The notes beneath the pieces were generated by a model, which was given only the letters and a program-made list of their open reading frames with translations, made no database searches and was not told the DNA's origin. Shown piece after piece: positions 1,727 to 9,616 of a DNA stretch of 64,000 bases (position 1 is its first letter; every line of letters begins with the position of its first letter). This stretch comes from Candidatus Kaiserbacteria bacterium (GTDB taxonomy: Bacteria > Patescibacteriota > Minisyncoccia > Phycocordibacterales > UBA918): positions 155,386-219,385 of the forward strand of contig CP064968.1 of NCBI GenBank assembly GCA_016699245.1. Reading direction: 5' to 3'. Both the position numbers and the translations under genes were made by a program.

Positions 1727-2434
1727 GTGATAAAATATTTGAGTATGGAAATTCCCCAAAATATTCTCAATAAATTTTTGGTTAGACCAGACTATTTGGA
1801 GTGGATTGAAGCCCAGCAGTCAATTTATGTATATTTTGACTTTACTAATATGCTCCATTGGCAGGATAGACTAGGTTGGAAATTTCGTTTTGAGGACTTA
1901 ATGACACAACTTCTTTCATACCCAAATATAAAAGAAGTAAAACTATACTATGGCGAGAATCCACGCGATGAACTTAATTCTAAAGCTTTTCATTCTCGGT
2001 TGCGCAAAACAGGCGCTATTGTTCGCAGTAAACCAATGAAGTTTATACAGAGACACATACATGAAGGGCTATTCTTTCAACGCAATACATTAGCAACCTT
2101 TGATGAAACCATTTCAGCGAGTATTGTCACAGTTGTAGAGCAATTAAAGGAATCAGGATTGGTTATTGAAGAACCAAAATGTAATTTCGATGTTGAAATG
2201 ACGATGGATTTACTTGATGATACCGAAAAATTTACAACAGTTCTCCTTTTTTCTGGTGACTCTGATATGTATGCCCCATTAGAGCGTCTAAAAATTAAGG
2301 GTAAGGCGATTGGTGTTGTTGGTGTTCGTGGTCATGTTTCGACCGAATTACACGAAGTTAAAGATAAATATATTGACTTCGGAAAGTTTTATACAGGCAA
2401 GCGCAACTATAAAAGCGAAAATCCCGCCAATTAA
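1727..2434 (+). CDS. NYN-domain (LabA-like) protein
   Basis: Acidic motifs (FDVEMTMDLLDD, FSGDSDM) consistent with NYN/LabA nuclease fold. Weak call. Confidence 0.4.
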   Translation: MIKYLSMEIPQNILNKFLVRPDYLEWIEAQQSIYVYFDFTNMLHWQDRLGWKFRFEDLMTQLLSYPNIKEVKLYYGENPRDELNSKAFHSRLRKTGAIVRSKPMKFIQRHIHEGLFFQRNTLATFDETISASIVTVVEQLKESGLVIEEPKCNFDVEMTMDLLDDTEKFTTVLLFSGDSDMYAPLERLKIKGKAIGVVGVRGHVSTELHEVKDKYIDFGKFYTGKRNYKSENPAN

Positions 2435-3083
2435 AGCGGGACCGCAAAATTAGTAGAATTGCTTCTACGTTTTAGATTATACAGTATTTATAGCAAATAA
2501 CAATAGTTATCAACACTTATGAAAAGTACTCTCGTATAACAAAAAATCCCTCATTGAGAGGGGTTCTTTGGTATGCCTGGCTTCAGCTTACAGAATCTGA
2601 TGGCTGAACGGGGCTTTCGCCCACAGGCACTATCTAAATATACACCGAATTTCACTGATTGTCGCATAATTATAATGAATTACGAAATCCCTTCTCAAAA
2701 TTTGTAACTATCTCATATGGGGACTGTGGCGAATTGTGCTCGTCACCATTGGTGCAATTTTCTTTTTTGAGCATGGTTTTGGCCAGAGCTATATTTTGAA
2801 TCAGAAAATCTTTTCACAGATATATGGATTTCCACATATGCATTCGTCGTGTTTTACGGCCTTGCGCTATGGCACGTCGTCTCCGAAGGTGAACGTGACG
2901 TGTCTCTTTGGGTAAAGATAAAACAAGGGATTGTAATTTCATTCAACAAAATGCTCTTTGCATTTCTCGTATTCACCATATACATCATGGTAATGGCCGC
3001 TGCGAGTGAAGGGGTGTAGCAGTATGAGATAATAGTTACACAAGCGACATACGTTCAAAAGAGTTTTAAATATTTATGTATTT

Positions 3084-3929
3084 ATGAAAAAAGAATCAAA
3101 AAATAAAGCAATTGCAATTTTTGAAGGCAGTCACATTCGACGTCATTGGGACGACGAAAAAGAACTTTGGTATTTTGCTATTATGGATATTATCCAAGTA
3201 TTAGCACAAACTGACAGACCACGAAAATACTGGAATGATTTGAAAACTAAACTTAAGAAAGAGGGAAGTGAGGTGTCCGAAAAAATCGGACAACTGAAAA
3301 TGCAGGCTAGTGACGGCAAGTTTTATCTTACTGATGTCGCTGATACAGAGGTGTTACTCCGCCTCATCCAATCCATTCCATCCCCAAACGCTGAGCCATT
3401 CAAGCTTTGGCTTGCGCGTGTGGGCTACGAGCGCCTCGAAGAGACTGCCGACCCAGAATTGGCCATTCAACGCTCTCTTAAGACATATTTGCAAAAGGGA
3501 TACAGCAAAGACTGGATTAACCAACGACTGAAGAGTATCGAAATCCGAAAGACGCTCACTGATGAATGGGAAAAGCGAGGTGCAAAAGAAGGTCTAGAGT
3601 TTGCCATCCTCACAAACGAAATTACCAAGGCATGGACTGGCATGACGACCAAAGAATACAAAAATTTAAAAGGACTAAAAAAAGAAAATCTGCGTGACAA
3701 CATGACCAACCTTGAATTGGTGCTCAACATGCTCGCAGAGACGGCAACAACAGAAATCTCAGAAAAACGTGAGCCAAAAACGCTGGACGAAAATAAGATT
3801 GTTGCTCGTGAAGGCGGAAGTATTGCAGGTAATGCGCGCAAAGACATTGAGGCAAAAACAGGAAAGAAAGTAATCACAAAGAAAAACGCAAAAGTGCTCC
3901 TTGCAAAAAATATTAAGAAAATTAAATAG
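3084..3929 (+). CDS. DNA-damage-inducible protein D (DinD)-like, Bro-N/KilA-N N-terminus
   Basis: C-terminal KGLKKENLRDNMTNLELVLNMLAETATTEISEKRE parallels E. coli DinD KGLKKNQKILDHMGSTELAANLFRATQTEEKLKRDG. N-terminal Bro-N-like region. Confidence 0.65.
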   Translation: MKKESKNKAIAIFEGSHIRRHWDDEKELWYFAIMDIIQVLAQTDRPRKYWNDLKTKLKKEGSEVSEKIGQLKMQASDGKFYLTDVADTEVLLRLIQSIPSPNAEPFKLWLARVGYERLEETADPELAIQRSLKTYLQKGYSKDWINQRLKSIEIRKTLTDEWEKRGAKEGLEFAILTNEITKAWTGMTTKEYKNLKGLKKENLRDNMTNLELVLNMLAETATTEISEKREPKTLDENKIVAREGGSIAGNARKDIEAKTGKKVITKKNAKVLLAKNIKKIK

Positions 3930-4066
3930 CAGTTACAAAGGTCAGACCTCGCCGGCATCTTCTACGGCATCGACTCTGTACCAAAAGGCTGGTATGAAGC
4001 TGTAGTGAGAATAGGGGAGATAGAGGAATTGTGTGTTTAGTTGAATAGATGCTACGCTACTACTAT

Positions 4067-4933
4067 ATGAAAACTCAAATCATACAGGTCGTTAAATTTG
4101 TTGGAGCAGTAGTCCTGGTAGCAATTTTGATTCCTACTATTTTTTATGTTTCTCTTCTATTGTGGGGAGATTGGCATGATGAATGGAGCGGATACAACGC
4201 AGGATGGTATATAAGTGATGGTCAATGCAATATTGCGGTGATTCCGATTGATGGAGAAATCACTACGTTTCCATATGAACTTGGAGGCGAGGAAGAGGGT
4301 GACCCTCCATCACTCTCTACAAGTATGACCGACACACTTTCGCTCCTCAATACTGCCGAAAATTATGACCCCAACATTCAGGGAATCCTCATGCTCATCG
4401 ACTCAGGAGGAGGCTCACCATCAGCATCGAAGATGATTGCTGATGAGTTGAAGGGAAGTACACTTCCTGTCGCGGCCTTTATTCTCGACTATGCAGCTTC
4501 CGGTGGCTACTACGTAGCCACCGGCGCCGACACCATCATCGCCAATCCATTTTCCGACGTGGGCTCCATTGGCATCACCATGTCATATCTCGACTACTCA
4601 AAGCAAAATGCTGAGCAGGGGCTCGAGTACGTTTCACTCTCCTCTGGCAAATTCAAGGATTCAGGCACGCCAGACAGGGCGCTCACCGCAGAAGAGCGCG
4701 CACTCTTTGAGCGCGACTTAAAGATTTACCACGACACCTTTGTAAAAGAAGTGGCACAGAATCGTAATCTCCCTGTAGAAGACGTAGCAAAACTAGCCGA
4801 CGGCTCCACCCTCCCCGCACCACTAGCATTAGAAGCCAAACTCATCGATCAAATAGGAGGGAAGGAAGATGCTCGCGCGTGGTTTGCAGAGCAATTGGGG
4901 ATGAATGTGGAGGATGTGGTGTTATGTCAGTAA
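4067..4933 (+). CDS. sppA: S49 peptidase, SppA-like (36K type), N-terminal TM anchor
   Basis: ILMLIDSGGGSPSAS and catalytic region DYAASGGYYVATGAD; TM helix at N-terminus. Start moved to MKTQ. Confidence 0.65.
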   Translation: MKTQIIQVVKFVGAVVLVAILIPTIFYVSLLLWGDWHDEWSGYNAGWYISDGQCNIAVIPIDGEITTFPYELGGEEEGDPPSLSTSMTDTLSLLNTAENYDPNIQGILMLIDSGGGSPSASKMIADELKGSTLPVAAFILDYAASGGYYVATGADTIIANPFSDVGSIGITMSYLDYSKQNAEQGLEYVSLSSGKFKDSGTPDRALTAEERALFERDLKIYHDTFVKEVAQNRNLPVEDVAKLADGSTLPAPLALEAKLIDQIGGKEDARAWFAEQLGMNVEDVVLCQ

Positions 4934-5004
4934 GACTTTCTTTTAAAAATGACATATTTTCAAGAATAATTGAGTAAAGTGAGTTGAGATGATAGTGTTA
5001 TATT

Positions 5005-5352
5005 ATGACTAATTCAGACAGACTTGAGAATTTAACAGAAAGAATAATTCAATTTCGTGACGACCGAGATTGGAAGCAATTTCACGACCCAAAGAATCTT
5101 GCCATTTCTCTACAGTTAGAGGCCTCAGAGGTTTTAGAGCTTTTTCAGTGGACGAAAGATAATGAGATAAAGAACGGAAAAGAAGAAGAAATTGCAGACG
5201 AACTCAGTGATGTCTTTTACTGGGTCATTATGCTTGCACATTACTACAAAATTGACCTCATTGGTGCTTTGGAAAAGAAAATGTATAAAAATGAAGTAAA
5301 GTATCCAGTAGAAAAAGCTAAAGGAAAGGCCGACAAGTATACCGAACTCTAA
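5005..5352 (+). CDS. MazG-like nucleotide pyrophosphohydrolase
   Basis: RDWKQFHDPKNLAISLQLEASEVLELFQW matches the MazG/NTP-PPase fold. Stop lies 1 nt before the next ATG, so operonic. Confidence 0.6.
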   Translation: MTNSDRLENLTERIIQFRDDRDWKQFHDPKNLAISLQLEASEVLELFQWTKDNEIKNGKEEEIADELSDVFYWVIMLAHYYKIDLIGALEKKMYKNEVKYPVEKAKGKADKYTEL

Positions 5353-5353
5353 T

Positions 5354-7663
5354 ATGATTGTTTATCAATCAACGAAACTGGGGTTTTTAAAAGATGCTTC
5401 AAATGGAATTGAAGATATTGTTAGGTCTCGAGTAAAGGAAAAACTTAATATTGATATTCAAGTTGGAAGTAGCGAGTACAACTCATGGAAAAATTCCCTT
5501 GGCGATGCAATGTATAAAGTAATGCAGACAGATAAGATCCCAGATGATTCCGGCATAGCTATCGAATATTCAATACCTCGAGCAAAAAATCGCATCGATT
5601 TTATTATTACAGGTGAAGATGATGAAGGAAAAGAAAAAATAATTATCATAGAACTTAAACAGTGGACTGATATAGAAAAGACAGACAAAGATGGTGTCGT
5701 CTTGACTCGTTTCAAAAGTGGTCCGAGCGAAGAACCGCATCCTTCATATCAAGCCTGGTCATACTCAGCTCTTCTTTATGGATTCAATGCAACAGTATAC
5801 GAAGAAAAAATTAGCCTAGAGCCTTGCGCATACCTACATAATCATATTGATAGTGATGTTATTTTAAGCCCATTTTATCAAGAGTATTTGGATAAAGCCC
5901 CAGCATTTTGTAAAGGTGACAAAGAAAAACTTCAAGATTTTATCGCTAAATTTGTAAAGCATGGTGAAAAGAAAAATACACTTTATAGAATAGATAATGG
6001 AGAAATTCGCCCATCAAAAAATCTTGCTGACAGTCTTACCTCAATGCTAAAAGGTAATCAAGAATTTGTTTTGATAGATGAACAAAAAGTTGTATACGAA
6101 ACTGCTCTATCTCTTACGAAAAAATCATCAAAACAAAATAAAAATGTATTAATTATCGAAGGTGGCCCAGGTACAGGTAAATCAGTTGTAGCCATAAATC
6201 TTTTAGTTGCAATTACTAAACTTGGACTGAATACACAGTATGTAACAAAGAATGCTGCGCCACGGGGAGTGTTTGAAGCAAAACTTACGGGCACATTTAA
6301 GAAATCAGAAATATCAAATTTTTTTACAGGATCCGGTTCCTTTGTTGGAGAAAAGGAAAATATTTTTGATGCTCTAATTGTAGACGAAGCTCATAGACTT
6401 AATAAAAAGTCTGGGATGTTTAAGAATTTAGGCGAAAACCAAATAAAAGAAATTATTGATTCTGCAAAATGCTCAATATTTTTTATTGATGAGGATCAAA
6501 AAGTGACGTGGCATGATATAGGTAAAAAAGAAGAAATTGAAAAATGGGCTGATAAAATCCATGCTAAAGTTTGTAACCTTAAGCTCGAATCGCAATTTCG
6601 GTGCAATGGTTCCGATGGCTACTTATCGTGGCTCGATAATATTCTCGGTATTAAAGATACTGCCAATACCACACTGGATGGTATAGAGTACGATTTTAGG
6701 GTTATAGACTCGCCTAACGAGCTGAGAGATTTAATTTTTGAAAAAAATAAGATAAATAATAAGGCTCGACTCGTAGCAGGATATTGTTGGGATTGGGTCA
6801 GTAAAAAAGACAAGCGTTTAAATGACATTCTTATTCCAGAGCATGATTTTGGTATGCAGTGGAACCTTGCGAGTGATGGAAACGTATGGATTATATCGCC
6901 AAAGTCTGTAAATGAAATTGGTTGTATCCACACATGCCAAGGCCTAGAAGTTGATTATGTTGGAGTTATTGTGGGTAGAGATTTTGTTATAAGAAACGGT
7001 AAAGTAATCACTAATCCTCATGAACGTGCAAAAACTGACGCCTCATTGAAGGGATATAAAAAAGAATTAAAAGAAAGACCAGAAGTTACAGCCGAAAAGG
7101 CTATGTCGATAATTAAAAATACTTATCGAACCCTTATGACACGCGGAATGAAAGGGTGCTATGTATATTTTGTAGACAAAGAAACTGAAAAATACTTTAA
7201 AGACAGAATGAACCTTTCAACACTTACTAAAAAGCCAGTATCAGAAAGTATTATTTCTCCATATGTAGAGGAAATGGTTCTAGTTCCACTCGTTGGATCT
7301 GCGCCTTGTGGTGAGCCACTTTTCGGTGAATCAAATATTGAAGACGTGATACAGGTTGAAAAAAGAAAAATCAGACCCGGCTCAAAATATTTCATTGTCC
7401 GTGCCTCTGGTGATTCAATGAATAAGGCTGGTATAAATGACAACGACCTCGTATTGTGTCGTTTTGCAGAGAAGGCAGAAACTGGTGACAGAGTAGTCGC
7501 GCTACTTGGTGGTGAATATGTGACTATAAAATACTATGATAAAAAAGATGGTCGTCGAATTCTGCTTCCAAAAAGTACAAACAGCACTCACCAACCAATA
7601 ACTCCTGAGGAAGGAGACGTGGTGCAGGGTATTGTTCAAGAAATTTTGCCTAATCCTGAGTAA
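5354..7663 (+). CDS. Multidomain protein: N-terminal PD-(D/E)xK nuclease-like, DUF2075/Schlafen-like P-loop ATPase, C-terminal LexA-type S24 autopeptidase domain
   Basis: N-terminus RIDFIITGED...IIIELKQW (D..ExK). Walker A GGPGTGKS, Walker B IVDEAHRL (DUF2075 pattern). C-terminus PLVGSAPCGEPLFG...ASGDSMNKAGI...VTIKYY parallels LexA PLVGRVAAGEPL...GMSM...VTVKRL (scissile C-G, Ser/Lys dyad). Confidence 0.6.
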   Translation: MIVYQSTKLGFLKDASNGIEDIVRSRVKEKLNIDIQVGSSEYNSWKNSLGDAMYKVMQTDKIPDDSGIAIEYSIPRAKNRIDFIITGEDDEGKEKIIIIELKQWTDIEKTDKDGVVLTRFKSGPSEEPHPSYQAWSYSALLYGFNATVYEEKISLEPCAYLHNHIDSDVILSPFYQEYLDKAPAFCKGDKEKLQDFIAKFVKHGEKKNTLYRIDNGEIRPSKNLADSLTSMLKGNQEFVLIDEQKVVYETALSLTKKSSKQNKNVLIIEGGPGTGKSVVAINLLVAITKLGLNTQYVTKNAAPRGVFEAKLTGTFKKSEISNFFTGSGSFVGEKENIFDALIVDEAHRLNKKSGMFKNLGENQIKEIIDSAKCSIFFIDEDQKVTWHDIGKKEEIEKWADKIHAKVCNLKLESQFRCNGSDGYLSWLDNILGIKDTANTTLDGIEYDFRVIDSPNELRDLIFEKNKINNKARLVAGYCWDWVSKKDKRLNDILIPEHDFGMQWNLASDGNVWIISPKSVNEIGCIHTCQGLEVDYVGVIVGRDFVIRNGKVITNPHERAKTDASLKGYKKELKERPEVTAEKAMSIIKNTYRTLMTRGMKGCYVYFVDKETEKYFKDRMNLSTLTKKPVSESIISPYVEEMVLVPLVGSAPCGEPLFGESNIEDVIQVEKRKIRPGSKYFIVRASGDSMNKAGINDNDLVLCRFAEKAETGDRVVALLGGEYVTIKYYDKKDGRRILLPKSTNSTHQPITPEEGDVVQGIVQEILPNPE

Positions 7664-7782
7664 AAAATGGAAGAGAAGCGGTGGTGTAGTGAAATGGGGA
7701 TAAGTACGTTTTAATTTCAGAAAAATAAGGTCAGCCACAATTTTTTATTGGTAATAACTTATGATTCTGATTTTAATGGTGG

Positions 7783-8128
7783 TCCGGTGGCAGGAGGATT
7801 CTTCCATTACATGGACCGTTTAGGTCGTATGACAATTTCTTCCTCTGGTCGAAATTGTCGACGACCTTTTCGAATCCTGACGAAAGCAATTTTGTATTGC
7901 TTTCTCCACTGGAGCTTGTTAGCAAAAATCCCCAAAGAGGGGATTTTTGCTAACAAGCTCCAGTGGCAGGAATTTCTCCATCGACTAATTTTCTAACGAA
8001 AATTGTCTGGGCACCGACTCACTGTTGCAAAGCAACATGCTCCGTCGTTCGAATCCTGACGAAATGTGCGCAGGCACATTTCTCCACCTCCGCAAATTAA
8101 AATAACCCCATGAGGGGTTATTTTAATT
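7783..8128. repeat. Two degenerate tandem units (~173-175 bp) carrying tRNA-Asn 3'-end-like motifs and terminator-like hairpins
   Basis: tccggtggcagga at 7783-7795 and tccagtggcagga at 7958-7971 versus the tRNA 3' end at 8131-8144. Shared ttcgaatcctgacgaaa+hairpin+ttctcca blocks. A-run/stem/T-run hairpins at 7924-7949 and 8099-8127. Confidence 0.6.
8099..8127. terminator. Bidirectional intrinsic terminator hairpin after tRNA-Asn
   Basis: aaaataacccc-atga-ggggttatttt: stem with flanking A/T runs. Confidence 0.6.
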
Positions 8129-8130
8129 TG

Positions 8131-8461
8131 CTCCGGTGGCAGGATTCGAACCTGCGGCCAATTGATTACACGTGTCCTACTATTTCTAGTGGGGGTGGAC
8201 TATATCATCATCCTTTCAAAACTGAATAGGATGCAAGGCGCTTCGACCCATTTCTGGGGCTACTCCCGTTAGGGATAGTCTCTGAACCTTCAATGATGTT
8301 TTCACATCAAAGCTTGGCTGCTGATTGCCCACAACATTACTTGCTAGGGTTTCCAGACAATTCACCTTGTTTTCGACCTACTTCTCAGTAGGAAGCTGCA
8401 TTTTGAAACTCGATTGAGTTCGTGTTTACAGTCAACTGCTCTACCGCTGAGCTACACCGGA
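8131..8461 (-). tRNA. tRNA-Asn(GUU) interrupted by a group I intron between anticodon positions 35 and 36
   Basis: Exons (8461-8428 and 8168-8131) join to UCCGGUGUAGCUCAGCGGUAGAGCAGUUGACUGU|UAAUCAAUUGGCCGCAGGUUCGAAUCCUGCCACCGGAG. Cloverleaf with U1-A72, loop CUGUUAA, T-arm GGUUCGAAUCC. CCA not encoded. Confidence 0.75.
8169..8427 (-). ncRNA. Group I intron (259 nt) within tRNA-Asn
   Basis: Core elements on minus strand: P AATTGTCTGGAAA, Q AATCAGCAGCCAAGC, R GTTCAGAGACTA, S GATGATATAGTCC. IGS GCAG can pair with exon CUGU; intron ends in G (CACGTG|TAAT). Confidence 0.7.
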
Positions 8462-8850
8462 ATGTGTATTTTTTCTGTGTACTTCATTGATAGTGTGGAA
8501 GCAATCTCTTGGGGAGCAGTTGACTGACAGTCAACTTTCTTACAGAAACTGTTCAGGTTGTATGATAATTTTCGTAAACTCAAATTATCGACAACCTCTT
8601 GCGAAGTGACTTTGTGTCACTTCTCACTCTACCGCTGAGCTACACCGGAATGTGTAGTCTATTCCATTATAGCCATTGTTAGCGTGAAACTTCTGTATTG
8701 GGAGCAGTTGACTGACAGTCAACCTCCTTAACAGGAGCTGTTTAGGTTGTATGATATTTTCTTTCGAAAATCTCGACAACCTCTTGCGAAGTGACTTTGT
8801 GTCACTTCTCACTCCACCGCTGAACTATACTGGAATGTGTACTTTGTCTC
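8462..8850. repeat. Tandem repeats (~185-188 bp, 2 units plus stub) each carrying a copy of the tRNA-Asn 5' end
   Basis: Units start at 8462, 8650 and 8835 (aatgtgta...). Each contains ctctaccgctgagctacaccgg (rev-comp of tRNA 5' 22 nt; third copy degenerate) and the palindrome gttgactgtcagtcaac related to tRNA GCAGTTGACTGT. Confidence 0.65.
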
Positions 8851-8988
8851 TCTATTAGGGACAGACAGCATTGTACAGAAAAATGGCGAGTCTGCAAATG
8901 GATAGCGAGGAATATGGGGTGGGAGGGGGGTAGGGCGGTATTGGTGATATACTCAGGTATTATGCGCTATGCATTTAGTCACTAGTAT

Positions 8989-9210
8989 ATGTACATACGT
9001 GTTCATGCGATTCCTAACGCAAAGAAAGAGAAGGTGATACGTGAAGACGAGACCACTTTTACTATTTCCGTAAAGGAGCCCGCAACACAAAATCTCGCCA
9101 ACAAGCGGATTCGGGAAGTTTTGGCTCAGGAATTAGGTGTTTCTCCTACGCACGTGCGCCTACTGACGGGACACCAAAATAGGAGTAAAATGTATAGTGT
9201 AGAGATGTAG
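8989..9210 (+). CDS. DUF167/YggU-family small protein
   Basis: Pattern VHAIPNAKKEKV...ISVKEPATQNLANKRIREVLAQELGV resembles UPF0235/YggU. Confidence 0.5.
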   Translation: MYIRVHAIPNAKKEKVIREDETTFTISVKEPATQNLANKRIREVLAQELGVSPTHVRLLTGHQNRSKMYSVEM

Positions 9211-9234
9211 GTATCAGTTTAATCAAACAAACAT

Positions 9235-9600
9235 ATGACGTTTCCTCACATCAATGTAAAAGCAACTAACTACACTGTCACGCCCAAGTTAGAAACATTG
9301 CTTGATCAGAAGTTTATGCCACTCGGCAAATTACTCGATGATAGAAATGAAGTACTCTGTGAAGTTGAACTCGAGAAAGTCGCCGAACATCAATCAGGGA
9401 AAATTTATCGTGCAGAAGTCAATCTTACGGTAAATGGAAAGTTGTTTCGAACCGAAGCAACTGAAGAAGAAATGGAACAAGCTATCGACAGCGCACGGAA
9501 CGATTTGAAAGCTGAGTTGCAGCGTGCGAACGGTCGTCGCCACAGTCTCGTGCGCAAAGGAGGGCAGATGCTTAAGGATATGATTCGTTCCGGAAAATAG
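9235..9600 (+). CDS. hpf: Ribosome hibernation promoting factor (HPF/RaiA family)
   Basis: HPF-like beta-alpha-beta-beta-beta-alpha N-terminus (INVKATNYTVTPKLETLLDQK...EVNLTVNGKLFRTEATEE). Confidence 0.75.
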   Translation: MTFPHINVKATNYTVTPKLETLLDQKFMPLGKLLDDRNEVLCEVELEKVAEHQSGKIYRAEVNLTVNGKLFRTEATEEEMEQAIDSARNDLKAELQRANGRRHSLVRKGGQMLKDMIRSGK

Positions 9601-9616
9601 GGAATAGTGATGTAAC

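Follow-up and report, generated by a model that had tools for sequence, protein, structure and literature searches.

Self-cleavage by peptidase S24 domains is textbook behaviour for LexA, the phage cI repressors (that of lambda among them) and UmuD, and in LexA the cargo of this domain is a helix-turn-helix (HTH) DNA-binding domain. A second group of proteins, the nuclease-helicases Nhi and Nhi-like encoded in defence islands (Bari 2022; Millman 2022), joins an N-terminal nuclease to a DUF2075 (PF09848) helicase of superfamily 1 (SF1) in one polypeptide, the combination by which Millman 2022 defines the Nhi-like group. The stretch of DNA analysed here, 64,000 nucleotides (nt) of a Candidatus Kaiserbacteria genome (contig CP064968.1; hereafter the window), encodes a 769-amino-acid (aa) protein (5354-7663, plus strand, stop codon 7661-7663) whose architecture agrees with that definition and which ends in a domain of the LexA/UmuD type. 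The cargo of the S24 domain is here some 650 aa of nuclease-helicase. From its sequence features we interpret the protein as a nuclease-helicase of Nhi-like architecture with a LexA-type self-cleaving regulatory tail, encoded in a two-gene cassette (5005-7663) together with the MazG-like gene that precedes it.

An initial annotation of the window, made from its letters alone, had read the protein as a fusion of three parts, and all three were recovered by profile searches and structure prediction. The central part (residues 263-608; 6140-7177) matches the PF09848 model, SLFN-g3_helicase/DUF2075, over its entire length (model positions 1-354 of 354; E=2.7e-104, 349.7 bits). The Walker A (GGPGTGKS, residues 270-277; 6161-6184) and Walker B (IVDEAHR, residues 342-348; 6377-6397) motifs quoted in that annotation are both present and intact, with GGPGTGKS and DEAHR invariant across 69 homologues, which places the protein in the DUF2075/Schlafen group III family; the fold of the helicase core is of the SF1 type and resembles Dda, RecD2, Pif1 and Upf1. 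The N-terminal domain (residues 1 to ~235; 5354-6058) had no match in Pfam and none among PDB profiles and was assigned through structure prediction, which gives a restriction-endonuclease-like alpha/beta fold with a D...(D/E)xK motif, the features of the PD-(D/E)xK superfamily. Its putative catalytic residues are E71 (5564-5566), D82 (5597-5599) and E100-L-K102 (5651-5659), the annotated IDF...ELK motif being located at D82 and E100-K102. Between the helicase core and the tail lies a low-confidence linker (residues 621-644; 7214-7285), disordered in the full-length model (predicted TM-score, pTM, 0.51), with a per-residue confidence (pLDDT) below 50 over residues 621-638, and in comparisons with differently tailed relatives identity drops sharply past residue ~606. 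Neither a frameshift nor misassembly accounts for the fusion, since dozens of independent homologues on separate contigs keep it as one open reading frame (ORF). An identical public protein (P0001), also from Candidatus Kaiserbacteria bacterium, is labelled 'DUF2075 domain-containing protein'.

The tail itself (residues 645-769; 7286-7660) agrees with the S24 autopeptidases in every sequence or structural feature compared. Residues 645-753 match PF00717 (Peptidase_S24; E=1.5e-19, 70 bits against a cut-off of 23.3), and a phmmer search of the PDB aligns residues 639-751 with residues 71-179 of E. coli LexA (4e-11). In this alignment, for which the codons were checked, the predicted scissile bond Cys652-Gly653 (7307-7312) is equivalent to Ala84-Gly85 of LexA, Ser688 (codon 7415-7417) to Ser119 and Lys726 (codon 7529-7531) to Lys156; the beta-fold core, the Ser/Lys pair, the Ala/Cys-Gly bond and the pocket for RecA Phe203 that mark the S24 family are all present. 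Among 81 close tailed homologues the residue before the cut is Cys (77) or Ala (4), Gly follows in 79/81, and the Ser and Lys are kept in 80/81 and 79/79 respectively, while the columns flanking these motifs vary freely. When 51 cross-phylum tails were aligned with LexA and UmuD, the A/C-G pair was found in 50/51, the Ser in 51/51 and the Lys in 50/51, one tail of this set (L029) being visibly decayed, and within the window's own tail subtype the Cys and the Gly of the predicted scissile bond are each present in 66/66. Because the C/A-G bond, the Ser and the Lys are near-invariant while neighbouring columns vary, we regard the S24 module as complete and under selection, and the intact cleavage site and Ser/Lys dyad of the initial annotation are upheld. 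A fusion accident or a decayed lexA remnant is ruled out by the conservation of the catalytic residues in more than 130 tails. By analogy with the established behaviour of S24 proteins, the tail is likely to cleave itself at C652-G653.

The identity of the trigger is suggested by a further set of residues. In the cryo-electron microscopy structure of LexA bound to the filament of RecA on single-stranded DNA (RecA*), RecA Phe203 enters a pocket formed by V79, V82, F111, L113, V146 and V153 and stabilises the cleavable state, with LexA lying in the filament groove across three protomers (10.1101/2023.10.30.564768). The equivalent residues of the 769-aa protein are V647, A650, F680, V682, V715 and V723; all six positions are hydrophobic in 66/66 tails of the window subtype, and the equivalent of F111 is Phe in 66/66. 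This pocket conservation is the best computational support for a predicted response to RecA*, weaker for tail subtypes 2 and 4 (described below), and by analogy with LexA we consider RecA* a somewhat probable trigger. The nearest non-fusion relatives of the window tail are also genuine LexA repressors (LexA_DNA_bind + S24; 47-52% identity). The 769-aa protein is nevertheless not a LexA repressor, because it has no HTH, its first 640 residues are nuclease and helicase, and its score against TIGR00498 lexA (72.5 bits) lies below the cut-off of 110.95, with model positions 79-197, the C-terminal domain, alone aligned.

The initial annotation had presented the fusion as a local curiosity, whereas it belongs to a large family spread across many phyla. 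A word-indexed search with the 769-aa protein gave at least 8000 matches, and an exhaustive search of representatives at 50% identity returned 9265 proteins at E<=1e-3, of which 764 reach E<=1e-30. Scanning the species genomes of GTDB yielded 80 loci of 44-67% identity in Gamma- and Betaproteobacteria, Bacteroidota, Verrucomicrobiota, Nitrospira, Desulfobacterota, Peregrinibacteria and Saccharibacteria. Among the carriers in culture are Phocaeicola barnesiae DSM 18169, Polaromonas aquatica, Variovorax ginsengisoli, Geomesophilobacter sediminis, Thioalkalivibrio and Halomonas; copies also reside on plasmids of Hymenobacter, Marivirga and Halomonas and on archaeal plasmids of Methanosphaera and Halalkalicoccus. 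Of 302 full-length members from many phyla, collected as best matches to the window query and thus not an unbiased sample, 138 (~46%) carry an S24 tail, 160 have no tail and 4 have another tail. A tail-less member of 60% identity was also found in a 22-kb record deposited as a phage (Microcystis phage Mwe-JY31, PP438423.1, 3843-5705; L094), all of whose genes are annotated as hypothetical and in which a 109-aa gene stands directly upstream, in the place of the MazG-like partner.

The S24 tails are themselves of at least three subtypes. Type 7, which is LexA-like (PLVGSAPC|GEP), is that of the window and occurs in the candidate phyla radiation (CPR); type 2 reads LPLYSxxAAC|G and type 4 DLKxAA|GxFSD. 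Cores that are 70-80% identical may carry tails with as little as 16% identity, as illustrated by P0001 and P0084, which are ~80% identical up to residue 606 and share motifs only beyond it, and the window protein shares 87% identity with the closest core that lacks a tail. These comparisons show that the tail has been gained, lost and replaced repeatedly and is an optional, exchangeable module; such repeated gain, loss and replacement in turn argues for a selectable, self-contained function. A phmmer search with the CPR tail, which missed all non-CPR tails, had first suggested that the non-CPR proteins of ~800 aa carry some other domain; this was rejected, as a hidden Markov model and alignment with LexA and UmuD identify divergent S24 tails in them. 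Tandem copies also occur: at the P0090 locus an 800-aa tailed gene is followed by a 658-aa tail-less DUF2075 paralogue, and on a Hymenobacter plasmid (L095:6001-9987) two tandem tail-less DUF2075 genes lie beside a restriction-modification (R-M) system.

We also considered whether stand-alone S24 proteins might act as separate subunits, and rejected this, since those inspected proved to be a tail severed by an IS21 element (L093) and a UmuD-like gene (L089); stand-alone S24 proteins from short contigs are probably contig-end fragments. In the first case (L093:1403-6636, within a 4.16-Mb genome) the IS21 element (rve + IstB) separates a helicase core of 624 aa from an orphan S24 ORF of 211 aa. 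In the second (L089:5001-5381), from another CPR genome, a 126-aa S24 protein that is 86% identical to the window tail has no helicase nearby, and a Y-family polymerase gene (IMS domains) lies 3 kb downstream. This protein is UmuD-like and is possibly the donor of the tail or a derivative of it.

The same type of tail is found on a second class of enzyme. Querying with the type-4 tail brought up fragments that also bear the C-terminal domain of Type I HsdR, and a metagenome scan with this tail gave 80 loci, ~52 of them with the tail on DUF2075 cores and at least 10 with it on full-length HsdR. The HsdR::S24 subunits are 1004-1218 aa long and contain HSDR_N, SWI2_SNF2, T1R_D3 and T1RH-like_C domains followed by S24 (by domain scan, L097:5118-8771, L096:4023-7340 and L101:2649-6275 are examples among L096-L149), and they belong to hsdM-hsdS-hsdR operons, that of L097 having the order hsdM-hsdS-(Schlafen AlbA_2)-hsdR::S24. 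A search of plasmids with the type-4 tail returned one record, a DUF2075 fusion. The segment before the predicted cut, LPFRRLxPEExxPYENxVPLYDLKxAA|G, is common to both cargoes, and 62/62 type-4 tails would leave a C-terminus ending in -[FIVAL]AA, which resembles the LAA of the ssrA tag and the VAA ClpX signal of LexA. ClpXP is also the protease that removes HsdR during restriction alleviation after DNA damage (PMC4231737, PMC11109961). It is conceivable, although we hold this only tentatively and would not give it an even chance, that S24 tails act as a RecA*-sensing cassette, exchanged horizontally and added repeatedly to ATP-driven restriction-type nucleases (DUF2075 nuclease-helicases and Type I HsdR). 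Nuclease immunity would then be coupled to the DNA-damage signal directly, post-translationally and irreversibly, and tails with -AA ends would expose a degron for ClpXP, a built-in kind of restriction alleviation.

The conserved companion of the nuclease-helicase is the MazG-like gene (5005-5352, plus strand), an all-alpha NTP pyrophosphatase of 115 aa resembling DCTPP1/RS21-C6. Its family membership is clear from PF12643 (57.6 bits against a cut-off of 27), from PDB matches to 4qgp (pyrophosphatase; 3e-21) and to mouse and human dCTP pyrophosphatase 1 (7e-19), and from the metal ligands E39/E42/E45 and E66/D69 (EXXE...EXXD), which are conserved in at least 96% across 72 loci. A single nucleotide separates its stop codon from the ATG of the 769-aa ORF, the operonic arrangement that the initial annotation had noted. 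In a neighbourhood set of 85 distinct loci (L001-L088 minus three duplicate loci), a MazG-like gene adjoins the DUF2075 gene in ~70 (~64 upstream, 6 downstream), the two genes overlapping by 4 nt in 21 loci and lying 2-3 nt apart in 15; the adjacency holds for 38/48 tailed and 31/37 tail-less genes. On six unrelated contigs the 115-aa gene stands directly upstream of the DUF2075 gene, with or without the tail, and every other neighbour differs. The conserved partner is the MazG-like gene, shared by tailed and tail-less versions, and among the sampled best matches tail-less relatives that keep this partner are about as common as tailed ones. From its similarity to DCTPP1 alone, the enzyme probably hydrolyses dCTP or a 5-modified dCTP, which could either deplete the nucleotide pool or exclude a phage-modified nucleotide. 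Type IV restriction genes are frequent neighbours, which is compatible with a link to modified DNA and falls short of demonstrating one.

Two other genes that the initial annotation had drawn into the module do not belong to it. The SppA gene (4049-4933, plus strand) was undetected in 85/85 loci (phmmer, E<=1e-3), and its GC content of 0.48 differs from the 0.36 of the cassette (window, 0.446). The gene called a DinD homologue (3084-3929, plus strand) scores 27.2 bits against NCBIfam DinD NF008573, for which the cut-off is 242, and aligns only through its C-terminal third; it has a Bro-N domain and instead matches over its full length the PADLOC phage-defence candidate family PDC-S13 (4e-131) and PHROG 15286 (unknown function). 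With relatives near the cassette in only 4/85 loci (L001, L009, L025 and L057), it is rejected as a partner and is an occasional island neighbour only. For all four genes named in this and the preceding paragraphs (3084-3929, 4049-4933, 5005-5352 and 5354-7663) the coordinates first given agree with the ORF list.

The genomic setting of the family is that of a mobile element. The two nearest neighbours at each locus, 149 proteins in total, represent 138 different Pfam families, the commonest being HNH_2 (8), RhuM (5), Fic (4), AbiEi (3), NERD (3) and Bro-N (3), with C5 methylase, PLD and RadC also present, and the expectation that homologues would sit in variable or defence contexts was correct. 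The L093 island contains Mrr, HNH_2 and GmrSD Type IV restriction genes, and SocA/Panacea, Fic/RhuM or Hypoth_Ymh lie near the cassette at individual loci. At L008:6315-9860 the MazG-like and DUF2075 genes lie between an S10-type ribosomal cluster, whose gene for protein L2 they directly follow, and pheS/pheT, an uncommon place for an accessory cassette to insert. Variable contexts rich in defence and mobile genes, together with low GC, indicate a mobile cassette of the defence-island type, and its context and architecture make it fairly probable that the unit at 5005-7663 is an anti-phage or anti-mobile-element system.

Control at the level of transcription finds no support. LexA-box-like palindromes had been anticipated upstream of 3084 or 5005, and none is present there; a search for GAAC-N4-GTTC and CTGT-N8-ACAG with at most one mismatch found no site in 2012-9610, and the window-wide counts of such sites are below shuffled expectation. 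Six aligned loci likewise have no conserved operator within 126 nt upstream of the MazG-like gene. Transcriptional SOS control is thus unsupported, as there is neither a LexA box nor a conserved operator. The 71-nt gap 5' of the MazG-like gene contains a weak sigma-70-like promoter match (TTTAAA-17-AATAAT, 4942-4970, plus strand; 9/12 in a consensus scan), which is unconserved in five other loci and is possibly a candidate promoter for the cassette.

Taken together, the explanation we favour, while placing it somewhat below an even chance, is a mobile two-gene cassette whose nuclease-helicase carries a LexA-derived tail as a damage-triggered safety catch. In this model the tail would keep the enzyme in a LexA-like, dimeric, tail-mediated state. 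RecA-ssDNA filaments would arise from damage to host DNA or from intermediates of phage replication and recombination, RecA Phe203 would enter the conserved pocket, and the Ser688/Lys726 dyad would cut Cys652-Gly653, irreversibly parting a nuclease-helicase of ~75 kDa from a tail of ~13 kDa. Cleavage would then uncouple or remove the nuclease at a time when repair intermediates abound in the DNA of the cell itself, amounting to a hard-wired form of restriction alleviation.

The direction of this switch is the most delicate part of the proposal. Should cleavage occur, inactivation (alleviation) is a tentative first choice, activation slightly less probable, and recruitment or another outcome less probable again; between the first two we lean slightly towards inactivation. 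The lean comes in part from the tail-less enzymes that are common with the same partner, since a core tolerated in this form does not obviously need a lock, and in part from the order of cargo, cleavage site and dimerisation core, which matches LexA and cI, two proteins whose cargo is inactivated when they are cleaved. The type-4 tails add to it, in that they would expose an end like that of ssrA or the VAA of LexA, a motif known from ClpX substrates, although a role for ClpXP in the action of the tail can be suggested by analogy only. Lastly, activation of HsdR by damage would be self-destructive, while alleviation is a documented need, served in E. coli by ClpXP (PMC4231737, PMC11109961).

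Several points weigh against the damage-triggered safety catch, and they concern both its trigger and its direction. Tail types 2 and 4 have an altered Phe203 pocket (V153 to Y/F; L113 to A/S/T). With E. coli RecA and LexA as queries, neither recA nor lexA was found in the 64-kb window, apart from the tail of the fusion itself; the presence of the trigger in this genome is assumed from what holds for Patescibacteria in general. A damage-inducible LexA network is said to operate in Patescibacteria, as far as the title of a single paper conveys. The LexA-like IrvR, moreover, does not use RecA (PMC7101444). PADLOC matches of the 769-aa protein are weak and partial (Nhi 4e-13, AbiO 2.6e-12, PDC-S41 8e-17), those to Nhi and AbiO falling in the helicase region and that to Nhi amounting to 46.8 bits over residues 236-418 and 153/470 model positions, and the census of tailed and tail-less members carries the query bias noted above. 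The window tail would leave -APC rather than -AA, so that the degron argument for inactivation is inapplicable to the window copy. Finally, the cleaved product would resemble natural tail-less enzymes, presumably active, in both the DUF2075 and the HsdR families, and inactivation consequently needs an extra step, either degradation or the loss of a required dimer.

This last point also sustains the opposite reading, put forward in the initial annotation, in which the tail locks the protein in an inactive form and RecA*-stimulated cleavage releases an active nuclease-helicase, making it an SOS-gated or abortive-infection effector that follows the logic of UmuD to UmuD'. It rests on the same evidence from the tail as the safety catch, and can add that the Cys-Gly bond is of the UmuD type and that UmuD is activated by cleavage, besides the equivalence of the released fragment to natural tail-less enzymes. 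The abundance of tail-less relatives with the same partner nevertheless speaks for a core that is tolerated without a lock, and the full-length model, with a pTM of 0.51 and a disordered linker, gives no structural evidence of a tail that occludes an active site. On HsdR, furthermore, such a switch would start restriction just when unmodified host sites appear, the opposite of known alleviation. With tail-less relatives of up to 87% core identity and the same tail on HsdR, the claim that cleavage turns the nuclease on is possibly backwards, and we consider this reading rather unlikely.

A more remote proposal is that the tail serves as a device for targeting or oligomerisation, docking the enzyme in the groove of the RecA-ssDNA filament or dimerising it as in LexA, so that it strips filaments or degrades intermediates of recombination-dependent phage replication, with cleavage either incidental or a timer for release. 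The groove binding of LexA across three protomers, the conserved pocket residues and the likeness of the helicase core to SF1 enzymes of the Dda/RecD2/Pif1 type are all consistent with this, and one core has taken up different S24 modules repeatedly and independently, as fits a binding function that can be selected. Near-invariance of the scissile bond and the Ser/Lys pair in at least 137 tails would, however, be unexpected if catalysis were dispensable, and the decayed L029 tail illustrates what lost constraint looks like; we judge this proposal improbable. A repair or replication-stress module, in which the DCTPP1-like enzyme sanitises the deoxynucleotide (dNTP) pool, the nuclease-helicase processes damaged forks and the tail provides a post-translational SOS link, is just as doubtful: it can draw on the house-cleaning role of DCTPP1 relatives (from PDB entry names), the place of S24 proteins at the core of SOS signalling, the 86%-identical stand-alone S24 protein near a Y-family polymerase gene and several loci among housekeeping genes, but it sits poorly with the patchy cross-phylum spread at 44-67% identity including plasmid, archaeal and phage copies, the low GC of the cassette, insertion points that vary and include a ribosomal-protein cluster, neighbours enriched in R-M, abortive infection (Abi), RhuM and Type IV restriction genes, and an architecture identical to that of the validated defence proteins Nhi and Nhi-like.

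The surroundings of the cassette in the window contain some further features. Upstream lies a gene for an NYN-domain protein, a predicted RNase (1727-2434, plus strand; GC 0.36), with weak PADLOC matches to NYN and HEC-09; a weak NYN relative is also found 3 kb upstream of the cassette in L005. Downstream, the intron-bearing tRNA of the initial annotation was confirmed: at 8130-8461, minus strand, lies a tRNA-Asn(GTT) whose sequence is split by a group I intron of 259 nt (Rfam RF00028, 83.5 bits). The flanking region, 7750-8900, holds three copies of the 5'-half of tRNA-Asn (8439, 8627 and 8812) and three of its 3'-end (7780, 7956 and 8129), spaced 173-188 nt apart, and perfect hairpins of 26-28 nt lie nearby at 7906-7966 and 8084-8139. 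The rest of the window has no distal copy of the 3' end of tRNA-Asn that could serve as an att repeat bounding an island.

If the proposed function is correct, the fusion would represent a new regulatory principle for prokaryotic immunity, and its members would be the first S24 substrates that are enzymes, beyond repressors and polymerase subunits. A tail that senses RecA filaments would give the nuclease a transcription-independent, one-shot signal of damage to the cell's own DNA or of phage replication, and more broadly S24 tails may be a regulatory module common to restriction-type motor nucleases. In keeping with the initial annotation, which knew of no characterised defence or SOS system with this domain fusion, full-text searches of the library covered found no description of a DUF2075-S24 or HsdR-S24 fusion, although some database records label both domains automatically (at JGI, 'DUF2075 family protein/phage repressor protein C with HTH and peptidase S24 domain'). 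In term searches of two Nhi-like papers, Millman 2022 and a nuclease-NTPase preprint, no S24 tail and no MazG-like partner came up. Defence papers on bacterial Schlafens concern the AlbA_2 nuclease and not the DUF2075 helicase family, and in the one searched LexA, S24 and MazG are unmentioned.

Comparison with known systems places the proposed mechanism close to familiar ground while setting it apart in its parts. Type I restriction alleviation likewise restrains an enzyme made of a PD-(D/E)xK nuclease and an ATP-driven motor when host DNA is damaged, and the present family bears on the same problem, namely how immune nucleases avoid autoimmunity during repair. In E. coli, however, ClpXP acts in trans on stalled complexes and without an S24 domain, and to our knowledge restriction alleviation has so far been explained only in this way, a self-cleaving tail built into the enzyme not being known from earlier descriptions. 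Human SLFN11 and the group III Schlafens offer a second parallel, in that the homologous helicase of SLFN11 is linked to replication stress, but there the nuclease has the AlbA_2 tRNase fold, and here it has a predicted restriction-endonuclease fold. The 115-aa partner, for its part, aligns over its full length with DCTPP1/RS21-C6 (E=7e-19) and keeps the EXXE...EXXD metal ligands, which raises the question of nucleotide-pool manipulation in defence, and differs from these enzymes in being a bacterial or mobile-element protein with a fixed place in the operon of a nuclease-helicase.

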